Positions 48,501-51,500 of a DNA stretch of 64,000 nt are shown here, one piece after another; position 1 is the stretch's first letter, and the number at the start of each line of letters is the position of its first letter. Source of the DNA: Flaccisagitta enflata (lineage: Eukaryota); the NCBI GenBank assembly GCA_965153355.1, contig OZ231126.1:33604001-33668000 (forward strand). The letters run 5' to 3'. Position numbers and translations under genes: made by a program. Under the pieces are notes generated by a model. The model saw only the letters and a list, made by a program, of their open reading frames with translations. It did not search any database and was not told where the DNA came from.

Positions 48501-51500
48501 GATATTGTTACCCCGCGTCACTTGCTTCCGTTTTCAAACCTTTTGATTTCTTTTGTTATCCAATTTGTTCATTTCTCTCCTAAATTTGGCTCTCCATTCC
48601 ACGACTGCGAGGGTCGTGTAGATGTAAAGCGCTAATGTGGCCAAACAAATGAAACCAAACCAGAAATTAAATGCGGAGGACAAATAAAAGACGGCAACGA
48701 GGACGTCGATGAACGCTGGCACGATGTTGAAGAATACCTAAAAAGGGGGGGGAGAGGGGCCCGCGAGGTAACGGATATATGCACGAACGGGACCGATGGG
48801 CAGACATGACACAGCGCAGTTGAAGCCCTGAGGGCTGTTTAAGTTGCATATTTCGCCGAATTTGGTGGCGATTCGCCCATATATCACTTGTCCTTGTGTT
48901 TAAACGACACAAACTTTTTGTACTTGTATCAAAACCATGTGATGCCAAAATATAACTTAGGGCTAGGACCGGCCAATAGGGACATGTTATCGCACTTTTT
49001 TCAATTTACGGATTTAAGAATATCTTAATCACTTCAATGCACTACTACACTTCAAAAAGACGCAGACCTGACTGGTGCTACTAAATCAAATAAACAACGA
49101 ATCGGCGAAAAAAAAATTGTATTGAACTATTAGGCTTAATACTGAATCAATAATGCTGCAATAGACACACAAACAAAGAGCGCGATTAATTCGAGAATGA
49201 AATACGAATCTTATCAACGAGTTAAAGTTGTAACTTAAACGCCACTTGTGAATCAAAATGACAAAGTTTGGTAAACTCAAATTCAATCTCCGCTGTTGGT
49301 ATCTTTGCTTCCGTCGTCTCCCTCGGCGTCCGACTCGGACCGAATCTTCTCCAGTTTCCGGTATTTGTAGTCGTCGGATTCTCCTGAACGCCTTCTGTTC
49401 TTCCCGCCGTTTTCTCTGCCGCTGTCAGCATCGCGTCTTTGGGCGCCTTTTTTCGGTCGGGCGCCGGATGGCCGATAGTTGGCGCTTTTGTTGGCGTCTT
49501 CCGCCGATTTAGATTGAGGTGACTTTTTGCGCATGTACAGCCAAACGGAGAGAGAGATGAGGAGGAGGACCAATGTGGTGAAGCCGAGACCCATCGAAAC
49601 CTAAGTGTAAGAGACCAATTGAAGAAAAAATACTTAAAATCTGGTTAAAATCTCAAAACATCCAATTTTTGACATTTTTCAACACAGTTATCCAGATAAT
49701 TTCAATCCAGACAATATCAATTTCAATCCAGACAATATCAATGCAACGCAGTGACATTGCCATCATTTTCAATCGCTTATATTTTGATCACTAACCCAAA
49801 GCAAGATAACGGATTGGTCCAACCCACCATCTTCGTCTTCATCATCGTCGTCGTCGTCATCGTCGTCGTCGTCGTCGTCGTCGTCATCCTGATGATGCCA
49901 TGTGGGGAGGATAAATTTTTGCTCATATAACCGGCCAAAATAATCTAACATTGCAGTTGGCTGTAAAAATCAAGCCCTACCGGCAAAGTTTTATCGCCGA
50001 CGTTGGCTTTCTTCTCGCCATCCTGTTCATAAAAAGATGTAGAAATTAAAGAAAATATTGACACCTGAACCAAACAAAATGATATGCTTTTATATGCTTT
50101 TATCTACACCTAAACCCGAGTTTTAACATAGAGATAAAAGTAGTTCTCTTAAACAAAATTGTTGTTGGTCGTTAATTACTTTCACTTTTTAGATGCGTCC
50201 TCGCATCTCTATCATAGCCTGTATCCGTTGGTCGGTTGGTTGGTTGGTAAAAAATTCATAAAAAGCATCAGAATCTTGCATTTTTAGGTGTGACAACTGG
50301 CTGTGTCTGTTGGTTGGTTGGTCAGTTGGTGGGTCTGTCGGTAACGCATTTATTTGACAATTCACACATTGCACCTCCTTGGCCTACTAGACCTTGAAAA
50401 ATGGTGCCAACCCAATCAAAGTAGCATACCTTTAATTCATCATTGAATCATTCATTCATCAAAAAACATTCAAAGAGGACGCATCGTTGGCCTGCTTGGC
50501 CTTGTTTCTTCGTTGATGTATCGTTGTGAACTGAGATTCATGTTGGAACCTGCTCCGGCTTGGCCTCTGCCGCGACGGCTTCTGCTTCTGCGTCGCGTCG
50601 AATCCTCGACTTTCGTCGCTTTTTCTTGTCCAGATGAAAGATTTGTCTCAGCAACTTGTCCGAGGCGAATTGTCTGAGTAGATGGCGAATCTGAGTGGAG
50701 GCGGCTTTGTCGACGGTCGGTTGCAATGGAGAATTGATATTAGTCTCAGAAGTTGGATTTCTCGCAGATGCCAACAAGACGGCGTCGATCGCAGATGCCA
50801 AGTCAGATGATTTTGATTCGGTGACTTCCGATGTGTATTTCCTGGTTTTGACGGCGACCGGAGCGGCGTTTCCGTGGACGGCGTGTTTCGATTTAGCGGC
50901 AGCTGAGGCGCCACTCTTGTTGAATTTCGCTTTAACGACGACGAAATCTTGAGATTTTACGGGTTGAAGCATCCCAAGCAAGATGCAAACCAAGAAGATG
51001 CAAATGATTCTCATTTTTTCTCTTCTCAGAGATCAATTCGAAAACGGTGGGGAGTTATTCGCGATTTGAATCGGGTAAAGTACCAATTTAGAAAACATCT
51101 CTCAAGGAGCTTTTCCGTCTCGTCGTTTCGTTGTATAGACGAAATTTGTAGTATATTGATTCAATTAACGACCCATAGCTAATGAAAGTTGAAACAACAT
51201 TGCCCTTACAAAAGGAGGCCAGAATTCTCCAATTTACAAAGGATGAAAGCCTTGCAAACTTATAAGCCATTACATCCGATCCCAGCATAAGTTTCTTTTG
51301 GGAAATTATCCTCAACGATAAATTCCTTACCGCATGTTGATGATGACTTTTCTGGTCGCGGACTCACGACTTTAAAAGAGACTTTGTTTTTCTGTCTGTC
51401 GGTCCATGGTCGGTAACGCACCAAAGGAAAAGTGTAAAAACGCGCATTTTCGGGGCTGCAGTTGTGATTGTATTTTTCTATGAGTGTATATGAGTGCTTA

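Follow-up and report, generated by a model that had tools for sequence, protein, structure and literature searches.

A gene with four coding exons lies on the minus strand of a 64,000-nucleotide (nt) stretch of the Flaccisagitta enflata genome (assembly GCA_965153355.1, contig OZ231126.1, positions 33,604,001 to 33,668,000 of the forward strand; we call this whole stretch the window, and all positions below are given in its own numbering). We consider it very likely that we are dealing with a real protein-coding gene that has splicing of its own, which is situated wholly within one intron of an ABCB6/HMT1-type gene, on the strand of that host, and which encodes a predicted single-pass type I membrane protein. 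An earlier note on this DNA, made from its letters, had already taken the gene for a real one, and this is now borne out by spliced RNA contigs and by a conserved full-length relative, the protein P0001.

Gene model and spliced transcripts

All parts of the gene are read on the minus strand. The coding part of exon 1 runs from 51014 to 50550 (465 nt, amino acids (aa) 1-155) and opens with the ATG at 51014-51012, which has an A at -3 and is preceded, six codons 5' of it, by a TGA in frame. This exon encodes a signal-peptide-like segment (aa 1-20, 51014-50955) and, further on, a basic cluster (50627-50595), and between the two lie a variable region and two conserved helices. It is separated by intron 1 (50023-50549, 527 nt), which holds pieces of an interspersed repeat at ~50185-50396, from the short exon 2 (50022-49981; 42 nt, 14 aa). 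Beyond intron 2 (49889-49980, 92 nt), which is placed by the splice dinucleotides in the genome, exon 3 (49888-49796; 93 nt, aa 170-200) encodes in turn an acidic tract of the composition D16-EDED (49888-49829), the residues GGLDQ and the start of a transmembrane (TM) helix (49810-49796); a tandem repeat of the 3-nt unit GAC lies within this tract at 49833-49885. Intron 3 (49601-49795, 195 nt) interrupts the TM helix, the remainder of which (49600-49532) is supplied by exon 4, whose coding part (49600-49283; 318 nt including the TGA, aa 201-305) continues with RKK and a charged tail of 82 aa; the tail contains the sequence motifs YRKL (49363-49352) and SESDAEGDD. The 3' untranslated region (UTR) covers at least 49020-49282, a limit set by the end of a contig from the RNA run X3 (see below) and not by a mapped poly(A) site, and a motif scan found no AATAAA on the minus strand of this region.

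The earlier note had joined four exons through phase-0 GT-AG introns into a frame of about 305 aa. This model holds: when joined, the four exons give a frame of 305 aa without a stop, all introns are GT..AG and in phase 0, and all exon lengths are multiples of 3. The same note had remarked that the ORF track splits the gene, and in the stop-to-stop list of open reading frames (ORFs) its pieces do appear as separate ORFs.

Six RNA runs were identified, of which five are marine metatranscriptomes holding a fraction of 0.08-0.38 of the words sampled from 49050-51100, and the sixth, X6, is a raw-read poly(A) run. Four of the six (X1, X3, X5 and X6) were mapped onto 48300-53900. X1 and X3 are two samples from one study, and their evidence consists of assembled contigs; X5 belongs to a second study. 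Contigs of both X1 and X3 contain the junction 50550/50022 exactly (joint 50021->50549, with CT..AC on the plus strand corresponding to GT..AG on the minus strand), and the same is true of the junction 49796/49600 (joint 49597->49793, cut +3, again CT..AC on the plus strand). Of the three junctions that the earlier note had put forward, two are thus found in contigs of two of the four mapped runs; the third, 49981/49888, adjoins the repeat 49824-49899, which was masked in mapping, and hence has no listed joint.

The contigs do reach into the neighborhood of this third junction from both sides. Exon 2 is included in the X1 and X3 transcripts, with 42 letters on the shorter side of the joint: the contigs match the genome for precisely the 42 letters of the exon, and then continue with 22 (X1) or 29 (X3) extra letters. 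The contigs of exon 4 extend 76 letters upstream of its junction, as expected if the assembly broke in the (GAC)n of exon 3. Contig coverage of exon 1 spans 50549-51001, while exon 4 and the 3' UTR are covered by an X3 contig (49020-49597) and an X1 contig (49117-49597); in X5, parts of exons 1 and 4 are covered, without joints. The depth is ~7-13 over the exons and 0-0.2 in the unique intron bins 48674-48860, 49609-49795 and 51292-51478, which shows that the signal is not due to carry-over of genomic DNA. Bins of high depth coincide with interspersed repeats.

Features and topology of the encoded protein

The N-terminus of the protein (aa 1-20) is hydrophobic, with a Kyte-Doolittle value above 1.9, and ends in VKS, followed by QD. 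The S at -1 and the V or I at -3 are conserved in P0001 and, by a purely heuristic measure, would suit a signal peptide. About 109 aa separate this segment from a basic cluster of 11 residues (aa 130-140, 9 of the 11 being K or R), which is closed by RIRR (aa 137-140 in the window protein and 143-146 in P0001), the single R-x-K/R-R site in each of the two proteins. After the basic cluster come a spacer and the D16-EDED tract (aa 170-189), and then the second hydrophobic segment (aa ~196-223), which is cut by intron 3 after W200 and followed by RKK and the tail. Within the tail, YRKL has the form Y-x-x-hydrophobic (with Y280) and precedes an acidic cluster containing Ser (SESD/SDAE); both elements are also present in P0001. 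The order of features from signal peptide to charged tail is the one that the earlier note had given, with the lengths adjusted to ~109 aa (from ~115) for the region before the cluster and to 82 aa (from ~80) for the tail.

The protein has just these two hydrophobic segments and lacks Cys after the first of them. The net charge is -9 before the TM core versus +3 after it; together, the two segments and this charge distribution fit a type I topology with a cytosolic tail, in keeping with the positive-inside rule. Composition is of low complexity, with an Asp content of 12.5%. A single-sequence AlphaFold2 model has a mean predicted local distance difference test (pLDDT) of 54, reaches a pLDDT of 85-91 in the TM helix, and places helices over aa 71-83, 105-121, 124-155 and 269-279 of P0001. 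We thus predict the product to be a largely disordered or helical single-pass membrane protein of 305 aa, with a presumed type I topology.

A conserved full-length relative

A HMMER scan with exon 1 against 1.84 billion cluster representatives returned one match, P0002, a protein of 158 aa that is 99% identical; it terminates in three intron-encoded residues, and so is a gene call made at this very locus without splicing. A word-indexed search for longer proteins also gave one match, the protein P0001 of 297 aa, from a contig of 1115 nt, which is 70% identical over exon 1; when the search was repeated with P0001 as the query, it found only itself. P0001 has the same start Met and the same terminal residues, is colinear with exons 1, 3 and 4, and is unbroken across the join of exons 3 and 4 within the TM helix. 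Its overall identity to the window protein is ~75% (238 of 318 alignment columns), with 84% for exon 3 and 93% for exon 4. The 14 aa of exon 2 are absent from P0001, a difference that may have arisen when one lineage gained or lost the exon, or may mark a cassette exon. The distribution of the protein appears to be confined to one narrow marine eukaryotic lineage.

The conservation is unevenly distributed along the protein. Computed over ungapped columns between the window protein and P0001, the identity is 83% for the signal segment, 63% for aa 21-69, 100% for helix A (aa 70-84), 44% for aa 85-100, 91% for helix B with the basic cluster (aa 101-155), 75% for the acidic tract, 94% for the juxtamembrane and TM part, and 94% for the tail. 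Identities of 91-100% in four modules versus 44-63% in the linkers form a pattern that neutral drift would not give, and P0001 moreover keeps the full frame, the start, the stop context and the order of modules at ~75% identity. Both facts speak against the possibility that we are looking at a young ORF which is transcribed and spliced but functionless, be it intronic noise or a new gene without selection. The distribution of the differences between contigs and window points the same way. The contigs differ from the window at 13 coding positions, 6 synonymous and 7 non-synonymous, with synonymous sites making up 23%; this corresponds to a ratio of non-synonymous to synonymous polymorphism (pN/pS) of ~0.34, and six of the seven non-synonymous differences (two of the seven being found in P0002 as well) fall within codons 41-118, the variable part. 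What a functionless ORF would account for is that the protein has no family and only one relative among billions of proteins, that its composition is of low complexity and its structural model of low confidence, and that the excess of synonymous differences is borderline (one-sided binomial P = 0.053). Taking these together, we believe that a functionless ORF is very unlikely.

Nesting within an ABCB6/HMT1-type host

The gene is flanked by two exons of a transporter gene. The upstream one, 53553-53693 (limits of the ORF, not exact splice sites), matches residues 349-387 of human ABCB6 (E 2e-10) and positions 80-120 of the family ABC_membrane; the downstream one, 48534-48737, matches ABCB6 residues 388-448 (E 7e-14) and ABC_membrane positions 128-181. 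Since the two exons correspond to consecutive residues of ABCB6, the ~4.8-kb interval between them is one host intron. Among PDB sequences, host exons match ABCB6 with E 1e-10 to 1e-14 and ABCB7/ATM1 with E 1e-6 to 1e-7; for the two flanking exons, ABCB7/ATM1 is weaker than ABCB6 by three to seven orders of magnitude. Further 5' in the host, the ORFs 57988-58242 (human ABCB6 residues 229-285) and 62529-63074, both on the minus strand, match MTABC_N, a domain of five TM helices at the N-terminus of this transporter subfamily, with E 2.9e-6 and 9.6e-5, respectively, when searched as single exons, both below the gathering score; further host exons on the minus strand match ABC_membrane and ABC_tran. 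Judged by these matches, the host is an ABCB6/HMT1-type half-transporter gene.

Host and nested exons are all on the minus strand, and the gene is thus nested on the host strand in an ABCB6 intron, as the earlier note had it; its numbering of that intron as the eighth is plausible. The acceptor AG of the downstream host exon lies just before 48737, at most 283 nt beyond the known 3' end of the nested gene. The host junction 53553->48737 itself was not seen in RNA; the bins of the host exons are mostly empty, possibly because conserved genes had been filtered out. A search for longer proteins with the host exon 48534-48737 gave no match.

The arrangement on the host strand is also what would be seen if the four exons were alternative 3'-terminal exons of ABCB6, made from the host promoter and spliced from the 53553 exon, and it is true that the transcript has no mapped 5' end, with contigs stopping at 51001. 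The TGA six codons 5' of the ATG, which is in the same exon, nonetheless means that no host frame could enter, and the ORF begins with a signal-peptide-like segment of its own. In addition, P0001 has the same Met in an ORF of 894 nt on its 1115-nt contig, into which the ABCB6 coding sequence of over 1 kb would not fit as well, and no contig in the mapped runs joins the nested exons to an ABC exon. We regard such a host isoform as very unlikely. That a transposable element brought the gene into the intron, as its cargo or as what is left of the element, is extremely unlikely: while the intron is rich in repeats, with pieces at 50185-50396 and 51182-51261 that recur in the window and an inverted repeat of ~1 kb at 52228-53282, there is no second copy of any exon at the protein or DNA level in the 64-kb window, there is no Pfam transposase, reverse transcriptase or integrase signal, and the gene has spliceosomal introns.

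Several points limit the support for a separate, functional gene of the kind proposed here. All junction evidence comes from the assembled contigs of one study, and the junction 49981/49888 is absent from the list of joints because of the masked repeat. The 5' contigs end at 50982 and 51001, 13 nt short of the ATG, and a promoter belonging to the gene itself is presumed. The poly(A) run X6 gave 26 reads, all on the intronic repeat at ~50181-50212 and none on the exons, with ~6% of the run read. The polymorphism test is borderline at P = 0.053, and a search for the DNA of P0001 in metagenome contigs yielded 438 pattern matches with 0 confirmed. On the side of the protein, the structure model with its mean pLDDT of 54 is poor overall, and it is from motifs that a signal peptide, a cleavage site, the binding of Ca2+ and the sorting are predicted.

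As for the orientation of nesting, the earlier note had stated that nested genes are more often antisense. This stands for human nested genes, 63% of which are reported to be on the opposite strand (PMC3192792); with ~37% on the same strand by that count, the argument from rarity is weak. In line with same-strand nested genes in other animals, the whole gene is in one host intron, runs the way the host does and brings splice sites of its own and, presumably, a terminator; with its own promoter likewise presumed, nothing about it is unusual for this class.

Comparison with known protein families

The earlier note had recognized no family, and we also found none by Pfam, PDB sequences, the HMMER scan or ESM Atlas. 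In Pfam no family passes its cut-off, the best being OAD_gamma with 18 bits (cut-off 27) and TMEM51 with 10.9 bits (cut-off 25.5); of syndecan, TMEM154, TMEM119, equatorin/Afaf, gpUL132, TMEM51 and SIT, none reaches its gathering score. The best match of P0001 among PDB sequences (E 0.31) is on acidic low-complexity stretches and was rejected. Whole-protein matches in ESM Atlas to TMEM154-like proteins, TMEM119, equatorin and herpesvirus UL132 had cosine values of 0.83-0.87, below the threshold of 0.9 for a lead, with low recognition, and were rejected as well; the Pfam families of these candidates gave no match even at E up to 10. Their likeness to the window protein is one of generic layout, i.e. 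a signal peptide, a disordered ectodomain, a TM helix and a charged tail. Residues 60-160 of P0001, the helical ectodomain, had no usable match in ESM Atlas. The conserved peptide gave no match when searched in the literature, and a search for the combination of polyaspartate, TM helix, signal peptide and furin found nothing relevant.

Two known systems resemble parts of the protein. In type I proteins of the furin/TGN38 class, a tail with a Y-x-x-hydrophobic motif and a Ser-containing acidic cluster directs cycling between the trans-Golgi network (TGN) and endosomes, and a lumenal R-x-R-R is typical of convertase substrates. The window protein shares with them the R-x-R-R, which would be lumenal, and a tail with a Y-x-x-hydrophobic motif and an acidic cluster, at the level of motifs only and without homology. 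The coral proteins SAARP2/3 (skeletal aspartic-acid-rich proteins) are described as combining a signal peptide with an Asp-rich ectodomain and one TM helix near the C-terminus (PMC4890752), and the authors of that work suggest for the Asp-rich part a role in binding calcium carbonate on the surface of the cell; this source also reports Arg-X-Lys/Arg-Arg cleavage sites upstream of the TM helix in other coral skeletal membrane proteins. Here, too, the likeness may be considered one of layout only (signal peptide, Asp-rich ectodomain, C-terminal TM helix). Unlike in SAARP2/3, the Asp tract of the window protein is just ~20 residues long, is adjacent to the membrane and has a basic cluster before it.

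A possible processing and sorting mechanism

Based on the order of these motifs, we suggest the following scheme for the product. With a cleavable signal peptide, the ~175 residues at the N-terminus would come to lie in the lumen or be extracellular. There, RIRR at the end of the 11-residue basic cluster would be a candidate site for a furin-type convertase acting late in the secretory pathway. The cut would set free a soluble fragment of ~120 aa and leave behind a membrane stub, whose new ectodomain would be dominated by ~20 membrane-adjacent Asp and Glu residues and might serve as a low-affinity surface for binding cations (Ca2+) or mineral. The conserved cytosolic tail, with YRKL and the Ser-rich acidic cluster, may drive cycling between the TGN and endosomes. 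The description of the product as a putative pro-protein derives solely from the conserved R-x-R-R motif, and we consider convertase cleavage at RIRR a tentative proposal; the specific roles further downstream are suggested with lower confidence than the cleavage step.

At the level of RNA, the host would have to remove an intron containing three pairs of splice sites that compete with its own, and a presumed terminator. We speculate that the missing canonical AAUAAA in the nested gene may help the host to read through.

A more far-reaching idea, which we regard as doubtful, is that the gene represents an undescribed family of convertase-processed membrane pro-proteins, in which the polybasic tract and the polyacidic tract of ~20 residues flank the cut site and would neutralize each other until cleavage. 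The cut at RIRR might then free a soluble fragment with a polycationic C-terminus that could bind membranes or glycans and could possibly be antimicrobial, and expose a tethered poly-Asp stub for Ca2+ or mineral binding; the location within ABCB6, a metal/porphyrin transporter, might couple expression to that of the host.

Repeats and further features of the window

The host intron also contains, on the upstream side of the nested gene, a nearly perfect inverted repeat (52228-53282). It consists of four contiguous arm pairs of 88-188 nt that are 88-94% complementary, with ~500 nt per side around a 65-nt center; it has the look of a foldback element or a miniature inverted-repeat transposable element (MITE), and its coverage by RNA contigs is moderately deep. 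A family of interspersed repeats with many ACC/AAC motifs, which translates as ...TDRPTNQPTN..., has a copy in intron 1 of the nested gene (50185-50396) and others at 43282-43423, 22217-22280, 19792-19860, 28033-28071 and 371-404; its depth in metatranscriptome contigs is very high. On the plus strand, the open frame of 356 aa at 34104-35171 begins with ~70 residues that show a weak match (E 0.003, below the cut-off) to the C-terminal end of the reverse-transcriptase domain RVT_1, and probably represents a truncated retrotransposon without long terminal repeats (non-LTR).

In the host gene, the last ABCB6 coding exon (38871-39572, minus strand) runs past the conserved end of the nucleotide-binding domain (NBD) into a putative Gly-rich, low-complexity C-terminal extension of ~150 aa ahead of the stop, although a splice site may end the exon earlier. 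The 5' part of the host contains a tandem duplication (~58861-60447 and 60448-62034) with a spacing of 1587 nt and 100% identity over at least 300 nt; both copies carry long microsatellite blocks, and their 94-aa ORFs (59431-59715 and 61018-61302) are identical. The duplicated ORF, which may resemble the last helix of the ABCB6 domain TMD0, was considered as an exon of that domain and has no PDB or MTABC_N match. The duplication could be a duplicated exon or an artefact of the assembly.

Implications

Animal genomes commonly contain nested genes, as well as genes for orphan or lineage-restricted single-pass proteins. The arrangement described here is accordingly ordinary, would be of little surprise to a specialist, and overturns no current understanding. 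What it does provide is a verified model, with four exons and 305 aa and with the support of RNA and an orthologue, for a gene that would otherwise be missed or fragmented. It is also a clean instance of same-strand nesting of a multi-exon gene, with its 3' end within ~280 nt of the next host acceptor, and thus offers a usable natural case of a host transcript that would have to pass a terminator, and leave splice sites unused, within its own intron. Given the unusual way in which a basic cluster, a furin-type site and a membrane-adjacent D16 are placed side by side, the product is a reasonable candidate for a lineage-specific factor that may act in the secretory pathway or in the binding of cations.

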